A stretch of 64,000 bases of DNA, taken from the sequence record MG589383; one strand, 5' to 3'. Numbering within the stretch: position 1 is the stretch's first letter; each line of letters begins with the position of its first letter. Shown piece by piece: positions 1,431 through 59,226 of this stretch. This DNA comes from Shigella phage phi25-307. The notes under the pieces were generated by a model. It was not told the DNA's origin. It ran no database searches and worked only from the letters and a program-made list of their open reading frames with translations. A program made the translations under genes and the position numbers.

Positions 1431-2432
1431 TTATTTCAGTAAAGTTACTTCAGAGATTTCCTCCCAACCATCTTTATCAGTTGAAATAAAATCTGCTACG
1501 TAAAGAGCCGTACGTAATGATACATTGCGAAGACGAGATACGTTAGCCTTCATCCAGGACAATGCTTTATACGTTTCTGCATCCGTCAGACCACGTTTCT
1601 GCATCATGTCAGTAGATAATATTACATCTTCAACTCGAACCATAATCTCTTCATTAGAGTGTACTCCAAGGTCGAGATACACTGAACGAGATACTAAAGC
1701 TTGAAGGTGTGGGGCAAGTTTCGAACCGCGTTCTAACTCTTTATCGATATCAACGTTAGTAATGAAAACGATAGTACCTTCAAACTCAAATTCTTTATCA
1801 ATACCCTTATCATCGAGATAAGATGACGCAGTGCTCCAACAAACTTTGCGTTTATCTCCGGTATCTAATGCTGCTTTAAGAAGGTTCAAGATGTCCATAT
1901 CTGAGAATACGTCAACGTCGTCGATTAAGAGAACGCTGTCTGCATCACGGTTGAGCCAAAGTTGTTCGTAAAGGCCAATACCAGAGATTTTACCATTAAT
2001 GCTTTTGTATTTGATGAAACCGTTATCATTAGCATTATTAAGTGCTTTATCCAGAGAATACGTCTTACCAATACCAGCTGCACCTGAAATAATGAGTGAA
2101 CGAATTTTACCATCGATAATGCCATTCGTCATCATGTTCATTACTTTAAAGCGTTTGTTGATACGAGTTTTCATATCTTCAGTGCTTTCAACAACTGCAA
2201 CTGGTGACGTCTCAACTCTTTCCATTACGATGTCTGATTTGAAGACCCATACTCCACGTTCAGAACCATCAATCATAACGAAAATTTTACCATCACCTAA
2301 GTGGGAACATTCAGGATTAAGCTTTGCCGGGAACCAGGTCTTTGTGGCAACATAAGAACCAGAGATTTCGTTATTACGATAGATACCTTTTTTGATTTGA
2401 ACGTTGAACATTTTATTCTCCAATTTACTCAT
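1431..2432 (-). CDS. P-loop NTPase (AAA+-like) with N-terminal domain of unknown function
   Basis: Walker A GAAGIGKT, Walker B-like VLLIDDVD, sensor-like TIVFITN in translation; ATG 2430-2432; early promoter 2450-2478. Confidence 0.7.
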   Translation of the reverse strand: MSKLENKMFNVQIKKGIYRNNEISGSYVATKTWFPAKLNPECSHLGDGKIFVMIDGSERGVWVFKSDIVMERVETSPVAVVESTEDMKTRINKRFKVMNMMTNGIIDGKIRSLIISGAAGIGKTYSLDKALNNANDNGFIKYKSINGKISGIGLYEQLWLNRDADSVLLIDDVDVFSDMDILNLLKAALDTGDKRKVCWSTASSYLDDKGIDKEFEFEGTIVFITNVDIDKELERGSKLAPHLQALVSRSVYLDLGVHSNEEIMVRVEDVILSTDMMQKRGLTDAETYKALSWMKANVSRLRNVSLRTALYVADFISTDKDGWEEISEVTLLK

Positions 2433-2480: not shown

Positions 2481-2699
2481 TTATTTGCGACGAGATTTTT
2501 TGGTAAGAGGTTGAAAGAACACTGCTTTACCGGCTGGGGTTAAGGTGACTCGTAATGCATTACCGATTCCTAAGGATGCTTTAACTAAACCTTTAGCTTT
2601 CAGTTCACCGAATGCTTGACGTTGTTCTGCATCACGAGTGTTAACCATAAGACCTTTATCACCTGCTTCACGAATCATTTCTAACATTTTGGTTTTCAT
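2481..2699 (-). CDS. small basic protein, 72 aa
   Basis: ORF track frame; start refined to ATG 2697-2699 with GAGGAG RBS (track start at 2756 is a GTG inside the promoter); early promoter 2728-2756. Confidence 0.5.
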   Translation of the reverse strand: MKTKMLEMIREAGDKGLMVNTRDAEQRQAFGELKAKGLVKASLGIGNALRVTLTPAGKAVFFQPLTKKSRRK

Positions 2700-2727
2700 T
2701 TTGTTCTCCTCTTGTTTTGATAGGTCT

Positions 2728-2756
2728 ATAGTATCATATCCTAAAAGCATGTACAC
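2728..2756 (-). promoter_or_regulatory. early sigma70-type promoter
   Basis: gtacac 2751-2756 and atagta 2728-2733 on plus strand (GTGTAC/TACTAT on minus). Confidence 0.5.
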
Positions 2757-2774: not shown

Positions 2775-2803
2775 TAACCCCCTAAAGGGACCCGAAGGTC
2801 CCC
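2775..2803 (-). terminator. intrinsic terminator-like hairpin
   Basis: gggacc-cgaa-ggtccc stem-loop after the stop of 2808-3089, followed by U-rich run on minus strand. Confidence 0.4.
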
Positions 2804-2807
2804 ACAT

Positions 2808-3089
2808 TTACTTATCGCACTTAGCAACATAATTAGGCATATCACAGAATACGGAGCGAGTAACTACTCGGCCCTTTGACCATGCTTCAGTTGCTTGTCC
2901 GGCCGTGCTATTAATATAGCTTGATCTAATGTTCTCAATACCCTGAGAATGTGATGCATTTACCGAACCATTAGAAGGCCCAGAAGACTGGTTACCACCA
3001 GCTCCTGCACTACCGCCAGCAGCACCCGTGGTAGCACCAACAGAGAATGCCATCATTACTGCGAATAAACCAATTACTAATTTTTTCAT
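2808..3089 (-). CDS. secreted Gly/Ser-rich small protein (N-terminal signal peptide, C-terminal Cys pair)
   Basis: MKKLVIGLFAVMMAFSVGA hydrophobic leader, GAAGGSAGAGG tract, CDMPNYVAKC; GAGGT RBS. Confidence 0.55.
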   Translation of the reverse strand: MKKLVIGLFAVMMAFSVGATTGAAGGSAGAGGNQSSGPSNGSVNASHSQGIENIRSSYINSTAGQATEAWSKGRVVTRSVFCDMPNYVAKCDK

Positions 3090-3120
3090 ATTTACCTCAA
3101 GTTAATGGTTATTTATCTAC

Positions 3121-4110
3121 TTATTTATAGTAAGAATTATGATTTTCGAGATAGACTTGTTCAAGGAAGTCATCCCAGAAACTCATATCTACTTTTTGTT
3201 GCATGCCGTTCTTGGCAGCTTGTTCTGATGCTTGTTCAACTTGGTCAACGATATCTTCTAGGAATTCTTGTACAGTTTTAAATGTATGTTTACCAAGCTT
3301 AACATCGAGAATAAATGGAGCATCCTGAAGTGGGTAAACCAGGTCGCCTGTTTTGTAAATTTCCAATAATTGAAGTCCACCACGACATGCATGACTCAAT
3401 GCTTTCCAGTCAATACCTTCGTTAGCTTCTGCCTTACGAGCACGTTCACCATAGTTCTCTTCCAGTTTAACCAGGATGGCATTGAACTCTTTATTGGTTA
3501 ACGTGTCTTGGAATTTACGGTCTAACAGATTATAGAATGTTTGCTTACCTGTTTTCTCGTTTTCAGTTTCAATCCACGAAGCAAATTCACCTACGGGCAG
3601 AACATTCTTCATATGTGATAAACGAATTACTGCACCATTATCAAAGTATTGTCCCCATTCATTAGAACGTTTAAGGGCTTGACGAAGAACAGCCAGTCGA
3701 GAACCCTTGACGCCGTATTTAGAAGCTTGCTTACGAACATACCCTAAATAAGATTTCATGTTAGTAGTATAGAAACGAGACCTGTTGTCTTGAATATACT
3801 TCCACACGTCAGGCAAATCAGATTTAACTACTAAACTTGGTGGAGTGTGAAGCATATCTAATGCGACGGTTTCACCATCCGCAGCTAGTTTAAAGAAATA
3901 TTTGAGACTATACAACTCATGGTCCACGTCGTCTTTTGTGTTCTTAGAAGATGTGTTATTCGTGTTCTTGCTCATATGTTCTTTAACGTTACCGGTCAAG
4001 ATGTCACGAGCATGAGGGACGTAAATTTCTTTAAAATCAACGTCAGATTCAGGAGTAGACGTTCCATAAAGGTGGCTACCAAAGTAGCCTTTCATAATTG
4101 TTTTCATCAT
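3121..4110 (-). CDS. Pol-beta superfamily nucleotidyltransferase-like protein, 329 aa
   Basis: GSHLYGTSTPESDVDF matches the hG[GS]x9-13Dh[DE]h nucleotidyltransferase signature; ATGATGA overlap with upstream membrane-protein gene. Confidence 0.7.
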   Translation of the reverse strand: MMKTIMKGYFGSHLYGTSTPESDVDFKEIYVPHARDILTGNVKEHMSKNTNNTSSKNTKDDVDHELYSLKYFFKLAADGETVALDMLHTPPSLVVKSDLPDVWKYIQDNRSRFYTTNMKSYLGYVRKQASKYGVKGSRLAVLRQALKRSNEWGQYFDNGAVIRLSHMKNVLPVGEFASWIETENEKTGKQTFYNLLDRKFQDTLTNKEFNAILVKLEENYGERARKAEANEGIDWKALSHACRGGLQLLEIYKTGDLVYPLQDAPFILDVKLGKHTFKTVQEFLEDIVDQVEQASEQAAKNGMQQKVDMSFWDDFLEQVYLENHNSYYK

Positions 4111-4580
4111 TTAGCCTTATATTCAAGAGTAGGACAGACTTTTTCTTTACGAGCTTTAAGGTATTCGCCTATTAATGATTTCTTACGTTCAATAGGCTCA
4201 AGTCCATTTTTAATTCGTTCTTGGTTTTGCGCAATGAACTCAATTTCTTTATAATATTTTCTGTCGTTATATTTGTCTAACAACCAAGATGGACCAATTA
4301 TCAACCCGGCAGAAATAAAAGCCATGACTGATACCATTAAAATGCCTACGCCAATTGAGGCCGGAACTAATGTCCATAGACTGCTAAAAACAAAGAATCT
4401 AGTTAAAATTTCCTGGCCAATGATTACGACTGCTGCTAAAATCGCAAATCCAATAATTGAAACAGACAATACTGGGATTAACGTTTTCCAAAAATAAGCA
4501 CACAACGTTTTAGGGCGATTCCATGTACTATTGAACGCGGCATAAATTTTAAAGTGCCAAGAGTTTTCATTGATAATCAT
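4107..4580 (-). CDS. membrane protein, 157 aa
   Basis: Two long hydrophobic segments (LIPVLSVSIIGFAILAAVVIIG; GVGILMVSVMAFISAGLIIG); AAGGAA RBS; stop overlaps downstream start. Confidence 0.6.
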   Translation of the reverse strand: MIINENSWHFKIYAAFNSTWNRPKTLCAYFWKTLIPVLSVSIIGFAILAAVVIIGQEILTRFFVFSSLWTLVPASIGVGILMVSVMAFISAGLIIGPSWLLDKYNDRKYYKEIEFIAQNQERIKNGLEPIERKKSLIGEYLKARKEKVCPTLEYKAK

Positions 4581-4589
4581 AATAATTCC

Positions 4590-5120
4590 TTATTTCAAAG
4601 TCGGGATAATAGAATCAAGATAAGCTTTAAGAGCAACTGCTTCATCTTTGTCTAATGTAATGATATGCTGACGAAGGTCATCAATTTGACGAATAACTAC
4701 GACATCACCATCTTCATACGAAGGATTAACGCCTAGGACTGTTGTATAGTCAGGGCGGTCCTGATTTGTAATAAAAGCATTACGGCATTTAGCCCATTGA
4801 AGTTTGGCCTTTTTGGCTGTTTCAGATTCCACGAATTCTTTCACCTTAGTGACGAATGTTTTCCAATTATTAATAGAAAAACATTCGTCTTCAGTTTCGA
4901 TATTAACCCCACTATAAAGTCCATGATAAAAACGAACTTGGAGGTCTTCACCAATGTTAATTACAGATGCATGTCCCGGTGGATTGAGTTTCAAAATCTT
5001 GTCCAGTTCCATAGGAAGAATAGTAGCAGCATCATCTTCTTGTGTCAGAACATACACATAACCACGTTTTTCGATACATAAATCACCAAACAACTCGGTT
5101 GTTTCAATTACAGTTTTCAT
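4590..5120 (-). CDS. hypothetical protein, 176 aa
   Basis: ORF track frame; first ATG is at 5118-5120 (track start is TTG), 1 nt after upstream stop. Confidence 0.55.
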   Translation of the reverse strand: MKTVIETTELFGDLCIEKRGYVYVLTQEDDAATILPMELDKILKLNPPGHASVINIGEDLQVRFYHGLYSGVNIETEDECFSINNWKTFVTKVKEFVESETAKKAKLQWAKCRNAFITNQDRPDYTTVLGVNPSYEDGDVVVIRQIDDLRQHIITLDKDEAVALKAYLDSIIPTLK

Positions 5121-5121
5121 A

Positions 5122-5301
5122 TTATTCACCAATTAAAGTTTCAACAAAATTCACCAAAGCATTCTGGCAAGCATCAACCTGATTTTCATAAAAGTCTTCG
5201 TTATCATTTACCGCATGATAAGCTACATCATTCAAATCTGAATCAGCTTCACGTAAGTCACGGATAAGGTCCATCAATTTATTAGCTTGTTCACGGGTCA
5301 T
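5122..5301 (-). CDS. hypothetical small protein, 59 aa
   Basis: Hand-translated MTREQANKLMDLIRDLREADSDL...; ATGA overlap with upstream small ORF; below ORF-track size cutoff. Confidence 0.4.
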   Translation of the reverse strand: MTREQANKLMDLIRDLREADSDLNDVAYHAVNDNEDFYENQVDACQNALVNFVETLIGE

Positions 5302-7475: not shown

Positions 7476-7678
7476 GTAACCTTTAAGCAATATTCTTCTA
7501 CATGTTGTTTACGACCTTTCTTATCAATAAAGGTATATTCAACGAATGTTCCAATATAGTCTTTATCTACATCATGTGGACTATTAATTGGGCATTTAGT
7601 ACGGCAAATGCGTTCCCATTGACGAATAATTACTGCCTTATTCTTTGGGTCATATGGATGTGGATAATGTATATTCAT
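7466..7678 (-). CDS. hypothetical small Cys-containing protein, 70 aa
   Basis: ORF track frame; start refined to ATG 7676-7678 overlapping upstream stop (ATGA). Confidence 0.5.
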   Translation of the reverse strand: MNIHYPHPYDPKNKAVIIRQWERICRTKCPINSPHDVDKDYIGTFVEYTFIDKKGRKQHVEEYCLKVTWL

Positions 7679-8172
7679 AATAATGGTTCCCAATCAACAA
7701 TCACAATTTCTAGTTTAGTGGAATACGTATCTAAAATCTCTTCGATGACGTCCCAGTTTCCACCACCAATACCTGCACCAATTCTTGGCATATAAATTAC
7801 AGGCTTTGTTATCTTATTCTTTCCGAATTCATTTAATTCTATTATACAATTCATTAAAGCATAGTACTCAAAATTAGGTCCCGGCTCAAACTGCGTATAA
7901 AGATTAAAGCAATAAGCTTTATGGGTCTTAAAATATTTTTCATAAACCGAATAAGTCCCGAGTTTAGACTCGTCTCCGAATTCGGTTTGAAGTTTATCGG
8001 CTTCCAGAATTTTTGGATAAGCCTTTGCTAATTGTCCTGCCACACCGGCGCCCATTGTATGAAAACAATTACACCCGTGAGCAATATTATTACCTTTAGA
8101 AAACAGGGCGACAATATCGCCCTTGATATAGTTTTTAATCACTTGCTGCAAGTCCTCTAGTATAAGAGTCAA
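7675..8172 (-). CDS. macro-domain (ADP-ribose binding/processing) protein
   Basis: NIAHGCNCFHTMGAGVAGQL resembles the macro-domain glycine-rich ADP-ribose pocket; no in-frame ATG near 5' end (TTG at 8172 or GTG at 8142 after GAGGA). Confidence 0.6.
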   Translation of the reverse strand: MTLILEDLQQVIKNYIKGDIVALFSKGNNIAHGCNCFHTMGAGVAGQLAKAYPKILEADKLQTEFGDESKLGTYSVYEKYFKTHKAYCFNLYTQFEPGPNFEYYALMNCIIELNEFGKNKITKPVIYMPRIGAGIGGGNWDVIEEILDTYSTKLEIVIVDWEPLL

Positions 8173-16243: not shown

Positions 16244-17200
16244 CTATTTGAAAGGTTTTACCATATGGAAATTTTGTTTGAAACGTTTGACATAATCATC
16301 ATGTCCTAAGCTTTGGTACATACTTACTACTTTGCTGTAGTTTTCCCAGGCATACTCACGGAACCAACCAGAGGTGATGCTTGTACAGACTTTTTCTAAT
16401 GCCATCATAAAACTGGCTTCAGGGTTAATTTTAAAGTCATTAGGAATCTGAGAACGTTCTAATGCTAGTACACATGATTCTTCGTATACACCGGCCAATT
16501 TGACCATTTCTGGTAATGATTCGAACTTCTCACGTGAGGTCATGACTTCAGAACCGTCTTTCATATAAAATGTATACGCTGGACGGTCTGTTAGTGCAAT
16601 GGCTTCATGAATAGTATCATGGTCATATGTATAGATATCATCTTTAAAGAACGCACTTTTAGAAGTGTCAAGAACCGGGTGAGCATAGTTCAAGGTTTCT
16701 TTCTGGCGTTTCAGCATAATTTCAGTAAGTTCATCGTTCAGTGTAACACCTTTACCACGAAGATACTGAATATGGTTCATAGTCTTTAAAAAGAACGGAT
16801 TATTTTTCTTGAAACGATGAGACATCTTAATTGCAAGACATATCTCAGGAGTTGCCCAGTAAAACCCATTCAAACAGTCTTTAGACAAATGTTTCTTGGC
16901 GTATTTTAAAAGGTCATAAGAAGACGTGAAATCTTCAGGAGTGAGTTCACCGACTAATTCACGGACATTAGTGATTGCCGGAACAATATACGCTTCAAAA
17001 TGAGTTTCGCGTCCATTATGGAAGCATTTGAAAACTTGGACATCAGGGTTATCTTGATGAACATATACACCCATCATTTGATTTTTGAATGTATTCCAAG
17101 AACCTTGGTCTGCAATAAAGTCCCAGTCACTATTTTTGATAGCGTTAGAATCAATAAGACCATGATAGTGAAGTGCACGAGAACCAATAACTAACATCAT
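16244..17200 (-). CDS. nucleotidyltransferase-like protein, 318 aa
   Basis: N-terminal IGSRALHYHGL...NSDWDF resembles the GS...DxD Pol-beta nucleotidyltransferase signature; GAGGAAA RBS. Confidence 0.55.
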   Translation of the reverse strand: MMLVIGSRALHYHGLIDSNAIKNSDWDFIADQGSWNTFKNQMMGVYVHQDNPDVQVFKCFHNGRETHFEAYIVPAITNVRELVGELTPEDFTSSYDLLKYAKKHLSKDCLNGFYWATPEICLAIKMSHRFKKNNPFFLKTMNHIQYLRGKGVTLNDELTEIMLKRQKETLNYAHPVLDTSKSAFFKDDIYTYDHDTIHEAIALTDRPAYTFYMKDGSEVMTSREKFESLPEMVKLAGVYEESCVLALERSQIPNDFKINPEASFMMALEKVCTSITSGWFREYAWENYSKVVSMYQSLGHDDYVKRFKQNFHMVKPFK

Positions 17201-22371: not shown

Positions 22372-22448
<77 letters not shown>

Positions 22449-22454
22449 AATATA

Positions 22455-22528
22455 TGACCCAGACCAGATTCGAACTGGTAACCTTTCCCTTATGAGGGGA
22501 CTGCTGCTAACCGTTGAGCTACAGGGCC
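22455..22528 (-). tRNA. tRNA with CAT anticodon (Met or lysidine-Ile type)
   Basis: Acceptor GGCCCTG/CTGGGTC (one mismatch), D-loop with GG, anticodon loop CTCATAA, T-arm ACCAG-TTCGAAT-CTGGT; D and anticodon stems imperfect. Confidence 0.55.
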
Positions 22529-58227: not shown

Positions 58228-59226
58228 TTATGATACTAATTCAATCCATGCAGGACGCAGAACATCTTGCACCATTCGGACCAATTCTTTCTTAACAAGA
58301 TTCGGATTATCAGATGATGTTAATACAATACCTTCACGAGAAGTTTCTTCCAGAATATCTTGAACAGTCAATCCCATCACTTTGCCAAAATCTTTTGGCG
58401 TTACAGCACCAATCTTAGAAATAACATTATTAACACGGTTTAATGTAACATAACAAGCTAGAACATCAAGCAAGTTTTTGTCAGTTTCTGTTAATGGAAC
58501 CTGAGTTTTAATAGGCTTATCAGACTTTTTCTTTTCACTGAATTTAGAGTTCTTGCACTTAATAGCTACACGAGTACCGTTTGGCAACCATTTAGGGAAA
58601 CAAGGCTTCAGAACATAACCTTCTGCCGTATTATCGCCAATAACATTAGCATCAAATACACAATTATTTGCTTCTACAAGGTCTTCTGACGCAGTAGCAT
58701 TATAAGCGGCTAAGACGGAATCAAGGTCGTTTGGAATCATGATAAGAGCATCAAATGTTCCACGACCAAGCATTGGTGCCATTTTAAAACCGAATTCATT
58801 ACAGAAATCTTGCATTTCGTAATCGGTCAAATACGTATTATCACCACTTTCTGTATTGATAAGGATATCGAACACATAAAAATCTTTTTCACCGTAGTCA
58901 ACACCTTTCTGGATTCCACCACCAGCGAATTCACCAAATACTTGATATGATACTGCTCGAGCTTCGTGCATTAATTCCTGAACGGCTTTAATAGCTTTAT
59001 CATACTTCTTGAGTACGATTTCATAGCCGTAAAAATCTTCTGCTGGAAGAATAGGGCCTGTGCGCTTGGCGCATGTGACGTTGTCACGTTCAATTATTAA
59101 CGAGAAGTTAGTCCCATGGATTTTCTCACGTGCTACCCAAACACCAGTAATCAAACCATTAGTGTAGAGTTTTTCAATAAACTTAGAGTTGTAGTGGTTT
59201 TCAAGACTGCTGTATTTCTTAAACAT
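58228..59226 (-). CDS. rnlB: RNA ligase 2
   Basis: [21 protein letters not shown]...EKIHGTN (KxHGxN motif I) matches T4 Rnl2 as recalled. Confidence 0.9.

Follow-up and report, generated by a model that had tools for sequence, protein, structure and literature searches.

The NrdC.11-type nucleotidyltransferase of Shigella phage phi25-307, a divergent RlaP relative with a probable role in RNA 3'-end repair

In Shigella phage phi25-307 (record MG589383), the gene for a small membrane protein runs directly into that for a 329-amino-acid (aa) putative nucleotidyltransferase (NTase), and a gene for a predicted secreted Gly-rich protein follows. What does the NTase act on, and does it work together with its neighbors? 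From the sequence alone it had been proposed that the first two genes form a translationally coupled, membrane-tethered module, which could modify or synthesize a nucleotide signal or a host envelope target. We addressed these questions computationally in a stretch of 64,000 nucleotides of this genome (hereafter the window). The three open reading frames (ORFs) are real, and all lie on the minus strand where they had been placed (Table 1). The 2.8-kb stretch around the locus shows 95-98% identity to many Mosigvirus genomes, and by this measure the window is Mosigvirus DNA, from an RB69/JS09-like T4-type coliphage. Comparison of the proteins identifies the NTase as the Mosigvirus ortholog of T4 NrdC.11, soluble and belonging to a divergent clade of the RlaP family.

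The nucleotidyltransferase and its T4 ortholog

The assignment of the 329-aa protein to the Pol-beta superfamily of nucleotidyltransferases, made in the sequence-only reading, was borne out by profile matches and by the invariance of its catalytic Asp residues. The NTase matched the Pfam family RlaP (PF10127) with E=1.1e-12 and 48.6 bits (gathering cutoff 23), over residues 7-138 only, which correspond to profile positions 23-145 of 249. It also matched phrog_388, 'nucleotidyltransferase', over its full length (E=4.6e-126); no Pfam or NCBIfam profile other than RlaP scored above its cutoff. The RlaP-like group was among the families put forward for such a profile search, and it is there that the NTase belongs. 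The protein contains the string FGSHLYGTSTPESDVDF, and its motif, F10-G11-S12 followed after 10 residues by D23-V-D25-F, conforms to the Pol-beta pattern hG[GS]x9-13 DxD/E. The likely catalytic residues are G11-S12 (window positions 4080-4075), D23 (4044-4042), D25 (4038-4036) and D63 (3924-3922). The predicted model has the alpha/beta fold and places D63, the third carboxylate, on strand 62-68; the predicted local distance difference test score (pLDDT) of the model is 94. Its closest structures in the PDB are NTase folds, namely Hailong HalB, kanamycin nucleotidyltransferase and 3c18. Identity to the NTase is 9-16% in these matches, there is no relationship at the sequence level and the acceptors differ; a PDB search with the NTase sequence returned nothing significant.

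In an alignment of 93 representatives with mutual identity of at most 50%, the invariant positions were G11, S12, S22, D23, D25, N57, D63, Y132, K236, R243 and G273. Among phage orthologs (30-99% identity), 88 of 89 kept G11, S12, D23, D25 and D63, the lone exception being the Salmonella phage S16 reference, in which the NTase has an in-frame stop at codon 53. The S16 ortholog of NrdC.11 (NC_020416; L008:4445-5455) is annotated as two fragments of a coding sequence.

T4 NrdC.11 (NP_049709), annotated as 'nucleotidyltransferase' and also a member of phrog_388, is 77.7% identical to the NTase over 337 aligned positions, that is, over the full length, and has the same catalytic residues. Both genes occupy the same slot between MobD.1 and NrdC.10 homologs, with the strand and the early region shared. 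In keeping with the early location first suggested, the NTase gene belongs to a region of early type that a T4-like phage can do without; its T4 counterpart is the non-essential early region from tk to nrdC. The immediate surroundings differ. Directly upstream of nrdC.11, T4 has mobD, a gene for an HNH homing endonuclease, in place of the membrane gene, and mobD overlaps the NTase start; neither the 93-aa secreted-protein gene nor a 91-aa gene that follows it in the window is found between nrdC.11 and nrdC.10 of T4. The sequence-only reading had left room for related phages in which the catalytic Asp residues are not kept, or for a T4 ORF of known non-enzymatic function. The conservation given above speaks against the former; as to the latter, the T4 ORF is indeed known but is annotated as an enzyme.

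The family is large. By tblastn, homologs of the NTase were found in 1,534 records of phages of Escherichia, Klebsiella, Aeromonas, Acinetobacter, Vibrio and other hosts, and the KVP40 copy is labelled nrdC.11. An identical protein is already on record under the name 'DNA polymerase beta superfamily protein', and the deposit for Shigella phage phi25-307, which lacks one N-terminal residue, is named 'nucleotidyltransferase'; the ORF has a second in-frame ATG after the first, which is used as the start in some GenBank records. Word-index searches brought up hardly anything beyond near-identical phage proteins, and the diversity of the NTase was taken from the representative search. An exhaustive profile-free search of clusters at 50% identity (E<=1e-3) gave 3,228 clusters of relatives, mostly full-length at ~320 aa.

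Kinship with canonical RlaP and the RNA-repair proposal

The GS...DxD...D core of the NTase aligns residue for residue with that of canonical RlaP from P. fluorescens and P. aeruginosa (PMC12776372). When an NrdC.11-like profile was compared with 13 canonical RlaP proteins using hhalign, only 84 N-terminal columns aligned (probability 45%, E=2e-4); within this stretch the GS, the DxD and the third Asp of the NTase coincide with the invariant GS, D43, D45 and D82 of canonical RlaP. A canonical RlaP covers profile positions 2-248 of PF10127 with 246 bits. Homology to RlaP over the full length, C-terminal helical domain included, was not found for the NTase: the phage-type enzyme is ~60 residues longer than canonical RlaP and differs from it in the C-terminal half, which carries a three-stranded beta insert (residues 177-201). 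Because this half is not demonstrably homologous and because both types coexist in bacteria, we place the NTase in a divergent PF10127 clade rather than among the canonical members. In the published similarity network of PF10127, T4 NrdC.11 falls in cluster 5 (PMC12776372).

A scan of 185,579 species genomes yielded 156 NrdC.11-like relatives, of which the best 80 were kept (33-52% identity, mostly full length), many of them on megabase-scale bacterial contigs. Neighborhoods were counted within 5 kb at the 71 of these 80 loci that have an intact ORF. Pnkp, Hen1, RtcB or Ro60/TROVE is present at 11 of the 71, and a canonical, full-profile RlaP stands beside the NrdC.11-like gene at 18, usually directly downstream on the same strand; at 26 loci one or another of Pnkp/Hen1, RtcB, Ro60 and canonical RlaP is found. 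Since such genes are rare, these counts suggest a strong enrichment of RNA-repair neighbors. Neighborhoods of this kind (Pnkp/Hen1, RtcB, RtcA, Ro60) occur around some cellular relatives of the phage clade as they do around canonical RlaP. The two types often stand side by side in bacteria, and we therefore regard them as paralogous clades that are probably not interchangeable. On a reading that we regard as unlikely, the same-strand tandems (13-18 of the 71 loci) would reflect a two-enzyme nucleotide-restoring unit, whose members might divide the labor, for example through different nucleotide or RNA-end specificities, or might form a heterodimer; T4-type phages would then have retained the NrdC.11-type half only. 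In the tandem loci (L096, L099, L106, L108, L117, L129, L139, L143, L145, L150, L157, L160 and L162; ~5.9-6.8 kb in most), the RlaP is a full-length PF10127 protein with E down to 1e-81, and the pair sometimes adjoins Pnkp/Hen1.

What canonical RlaP does has recently been described. According to a December 2025 preprint, two canonical Pseudomonas enzymes add 1-2 nucleoside monophosphates (NMPs) to the 3'-OH of RNA, DNA and protein not being substrates; their preferred RNAs mimic cleaved tRNA, and they work best with Mn2+ and partly restore the aminoacylation of a tRNA missing an anticodon-loop nucleotide (PMC12776372). The same authors proposed that RlaP counters nucleases such as RloC, which cut tRNA and then remove a nucleotide, and an earlier comparative study had made the same prediction for phage RlaP (PMC7824862). 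By analogy, an activity of the NrdC.11-type NTase on RNA 3' ends is somewhat more probable than another activity, and the locus is best explained, with similar reserve, by an enzyme that restores nucleotides on nuclease-damaged tRNA before a phage RNA ligase seals it. In such a mechanism, D23, D25 and D63 would hold two divalent metal ions and the nucleoside triphosphate, and the NTase would transfer 1-2 NMPs to the RNA 3'-OH. The likely substrates in the infected cell would be tRNA halves left by host anticodon nucleases of the RloC type, which take out a nucleotide as well as cutting. Phage Pnkp would first turn the 2',3'-cyclic phosphate into a 3'-OH; the NTase would then put back the lost nucleotide, and a 5'-phosphate RNA ligase (Rnl1 or Rnl2) would reseal the tRNA. 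For RtcB, an end-incompatibility with RlaP has been noted (PMC12776372). The phage route would avoid it, because Pnkp gives a 3'-OH and Rnl1 or Rnl2 joins a 3'-OH to a 5'-phosphate. T4 encodes pseT, rnlA and rnlB, and the window encodes Rnl2, a candidate downstream partner of the NTase. Inferred in this proposal are RNA as the substrate, how many nucleotides are added and an action against RloC-like nucleases.

Several observations weigh against the proposal. The activity that has been measured is that of canonical RlaP. The homology of the NTase to canonical RlaP is limited to the N-terminal ~85-130 residues, and its C-terminal half, which in RlaP provides the RNA-binding cleft, may bind another substrate. 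The top structural match, HalB, is a DNA-oligonucleotide synthase and not an RNA-end modifier. At 45 of the 71 cellular loci there is no RNA-repair neighbor within 5 kb, and in the phage no RNA ligase or Pnkp gene adjoins the NTase gene, the nearest ligase gene (Rnl2) being ~54 kb away. Finally, T4 tolerates the deletion of nrdC.11 under laboratory conditions (PMC9825161).

The membrane-protein gene and other explanations

The protein encoded directly upstream is, as had been read from the sequence, a two-helix membrane protein: it has hydrophobic stretches at ~29-66 and 67-101, and AlphaFold predicts a hairpin of helices 26-65 and 68-124 (mean pLDDT 83.6), with short strands at both termini that are consistent with pairing. 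Its family is found in 1,000 phage records. The invariant residues of the family, H9, P23, C27, Y29, K147 and C149, map to the two terminal segments, both predicted to be cytoplasmic, and may form a metal site. The protein had no match in Pfam, NCBIfam, PADLOC or the PDB, and a Foldseek search of the PDB with its model gave no match with E<4. Two viral loci (L058 and L071) each carry two paralogs of the family, and three others (L043, L044 and L081) carry forms of ~240 aa with an 85-aa N-terminal extension.

The ATGATGA overlap is present, the TGA stop of the membrane gene (4109-4107) overlapping the first ATG of the NTase ORF (4110-4108). Are the two proteins then coupled in translation and tethered to the membrane as one module, to act at the envelope or to produce a nucleotide signal? 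An ATGA overlap also in Tequatrovirus and related phages would fit such a module, as would a role of the conserved cytoplasmic H/C/C motif as a docking or metal site and the standing of the membrane gene as the most frequent syntenic neighbor of the NTase, at 45 of 79 viral loci. These counts were made on 79 viral-contig loci chosen by the NTase, with the membrane gene sought up to 4 kb upstream, and broken down they argue against the module. The membrane-family gene abuts the NTase gene at 11 loci, lies 0.3-2.6 kb upstream with 1-4 unrelated genes between at 34, and was not found within 4 kb upstream at the remaining 34. NrdC.10 (35), MobD.1 (32) and NrdC.9 (31) are syntenic at similar rates; for p91 the count was 38. 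The whole T4 genome, scanned in six frames, yielded the NTase (E=3e-125) and no membrane-family member (best E=0.04, against 5e-47 and 2e-34 for the positive controls), so that T4 keeps the enzyme without any gene of this family. The NTase itself lacks any hydrophobic segment. The membrane gene occurring without the NTase is known from single cases only: in Aeromonas phage avDM3 it lies elsewhere, between gene 32 and frd, and in Salmonella phage S16 it is intact ~1.2 kb upstream of the NTase gene with the premature stop.

Overlaps with the NTase start involve other genes as well. At about two dozen loci an unrelated soluble-protein gene overlaps it (ATGA or similar), and in Aeh1-like phages (220-233 kb) an ATGA overlap is formed by an unrelated ORF of 115-119 aa with a single N-terminal transmembrane segment (Table 1). 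Distant kinship of this ORF to the membrane family was considered and rejected, the SWH, C-x-Y and K-x-C motifs being absent. We take the adjacency, which is limited to a few genera, to be conserved gene order in these, and the overlap to be the ordinary tight packing of T4-type genomes; a membrane-tethered or coupled module is accordingly highly improbable. Rather, the genes for the membrane protein upstream and the secreted protein downstream are separate accessory genes, probably in the same early transcription unit.

Other acceptors were weighed for the NTase. A HalB- or CD-NTase-like enzyme could make an oligonucleotide or cyclic-nucleotide signal, with which the phage might counter host defence or control superinfection and which might gate the membrane protein; a gene for a two-helix membrane protein next to one for an NTase is superficially like Hailong, in which HalB gates HalA. 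However, neither protein has a PADLOC match, the NTase has no CD-NTase match in Pfam or NCBIfam, and many phages lack the membrane partner or can do without it. The sequence family and the cellular neighborhoods point instead to RNA 3'-end repair, and not to the signal synthase or envelope target first imagined; we consider signal synthesis very unlikely. A CD-NTase/CBASS-like synthase was rejected as a candidate on the missing PADLOC and CD-NTase profile matches. Were the acceptor a protein or a small molecule, as for enzymes of the ANT/KNTase or MntA type, the NTase might for example inactivate a host HEPN-type toxin. A faint MntA match (E=0.076) would favor this, but the NCBIfam MntA score is 12.9 bits against a cutoff of 60, the phage and cellular loci that were examined showed no HEPN-like gene beside the NTase, and canonical RlaP left E. 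coli proteins unlabelled (PMC12776372). An MntA antitoxin was rejected on the score and the missing neighbor, and we hold modification of a protein or small molecule to be improbable. A further proposal has two separate parts: that the NrdC.11-type enzyme is a functionally distinct partner of canonical RlaP rather than a variant of it, and that the membrane protein is a metal-binding host-takeover factor, which recruits the NTase where the two genes abut. Taken jointly, these are conceivable but unlikely. The explanation that we favor is the restoration of nucleotides on damaged tRNA.

Accessory genes, surrounding features and significance

The 93-aa protein encoded downstream of the NTase begins with MKKLVIGLFAVMMAFSVGA, continues with a stretch rich in Gly, Ser, Ala and Asn, and has two C-terminal Cys residues. 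The MKK start, hydrophobic segment and SVGA stand in signal-peptide arrangement, and on this reading of the sequence the protein is predicted to be secreted, as had been proposed. The implied link to the NTase is not supported: the protein is restricted to 101 phage records, all of Escherichia, Shigella or Mosigvirus-type phages, and only 2 of the 79 viral loci carry it. At its position in T4 there is a gap of just 114 bp. The gene is a Mosigvirus-specific insert. Homology to YbgS (PF13985) was considered and rejected, since the match (17.1 bits, cutoff 27) covers the signal peptide and a low-complexity region only. The hairpin that follows the gene probably marks where the transcription unit ends or serves as a stabilizing 3' hairpin. 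Its fold energy is -13.9 kcal/mol, which is not significant against shuffled sequence (z=-1.08). Promoter-like sites near 5465-5437 or 5914-5887 are possible starts of the transcription unit; when promoters and terminators were scanned for, the counts did not exceed those in shuffled sequence. Because both the scan and the hairpin energy are within chance, the boundaries of the transcription unit are only suggestive.

The gene order of the window is the same as in the annotated records GADS24 and ST0, in which tk, rI.1, rI and several small ORFs are followed by the MobD.1 homolog, the membrane protein, the nucleotidyltransferase, small ORFs and an ATP-binding protein. One of the small ORFs, of 91 aa (window 2481-2756, minus strand; phrog_6001), has a faint winged-helix match. 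It varies in presence among close Mosigviruses: it is absent in ST0 and in many records covering only 91% of the query. A 165-aa ORF (7675-8172, minus strand) holds the position of T4 tk.4, upstream of tk; the T4 and GADS24 annotations call tk.4 an A1pp/macro-type 'phosphatase'. Farther away, a 318-aa protein (16244-17200, minus strand) has DUF7277 and DUF7275 domains, and its N-terminus, VIGSRAL...NSDWDF, resembles a second hGS...DxD nucleotidyltransferase-like string. Two adjacent tRNA genes lie at 22375-22528 (minus strand; Rfam tRNA, 71 and 52 bits).

Table 1. Positions of the NTase locus and associated features (window coordinates unless a locus is named)
Feature	Position	Strand	Remarks
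NrdC.11-type Pol-beta-fold nucleotidyltransferase, 329 aa	3121..4110	minus	RlaP PF10127, phrog_388
Small inner-membrane protein, 157 aa	4107..4580	minus	phrog_944; two-helix hairpin, N- and C-termini predicted cytoplasmic
ATGA stop/start overlap of membrane gene and NTase gene	4107..4110	minus	AAGG Shine-Dalgarno-like string 5 nt upstream
Predicted secreted Gly/Ser-rich protein, 93 aa	2808..3089	minus	phrog_2243; lineage-specific insert between nrdC.11 and nrdC.10
GGGGACC-UUCG-GGUCCC hairpin and U-run	2776..2805	minus	directly 3' of the stop codon of the 93-aa gene
T4 MobD.1 (y05I-like) homolog	4590..5132	minus	immediately upstream gene; marks syntenic block
T4 NrdC.10 homolog (P-loop ATPase)	1431..2432	minus	downstream syntenic neighbor
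T4 RNA ligase 2 (rnlB) homolog	58228..59226	minus	Pfam RNA_ligase and T4_Rnl2_C, EKIHGTN ligase motif
Aeh1-type upstream transmembrane ORF	L067:3657-4004, L069:3657-4004, L072:3645-4004		second independent case of a small membrane protein immediately upstream of the NTase

The NTase gene, an RlaP-family ortholog of T4 NrdC.11, is already known. Since it has been annotated and its function predicted in print, the window adds no new kind of system. The new points are modest, namely the cellular tandem with canonical RlaP and the independence of the NTase from the neighboring membrane gene; what remains of value lies in the biochemistry of the phage clade, in the tandem pairing in cells and in the His/Cys/Cys family of membrane proteins. 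If the NTase does restore nucleotides lost to RloC-like nucleases, it would complete the classic T4 Pnkp/Rnl1 pathway of tRNA repair and would explain how T-even phages could answer nucleases that were thought to render repair futile.

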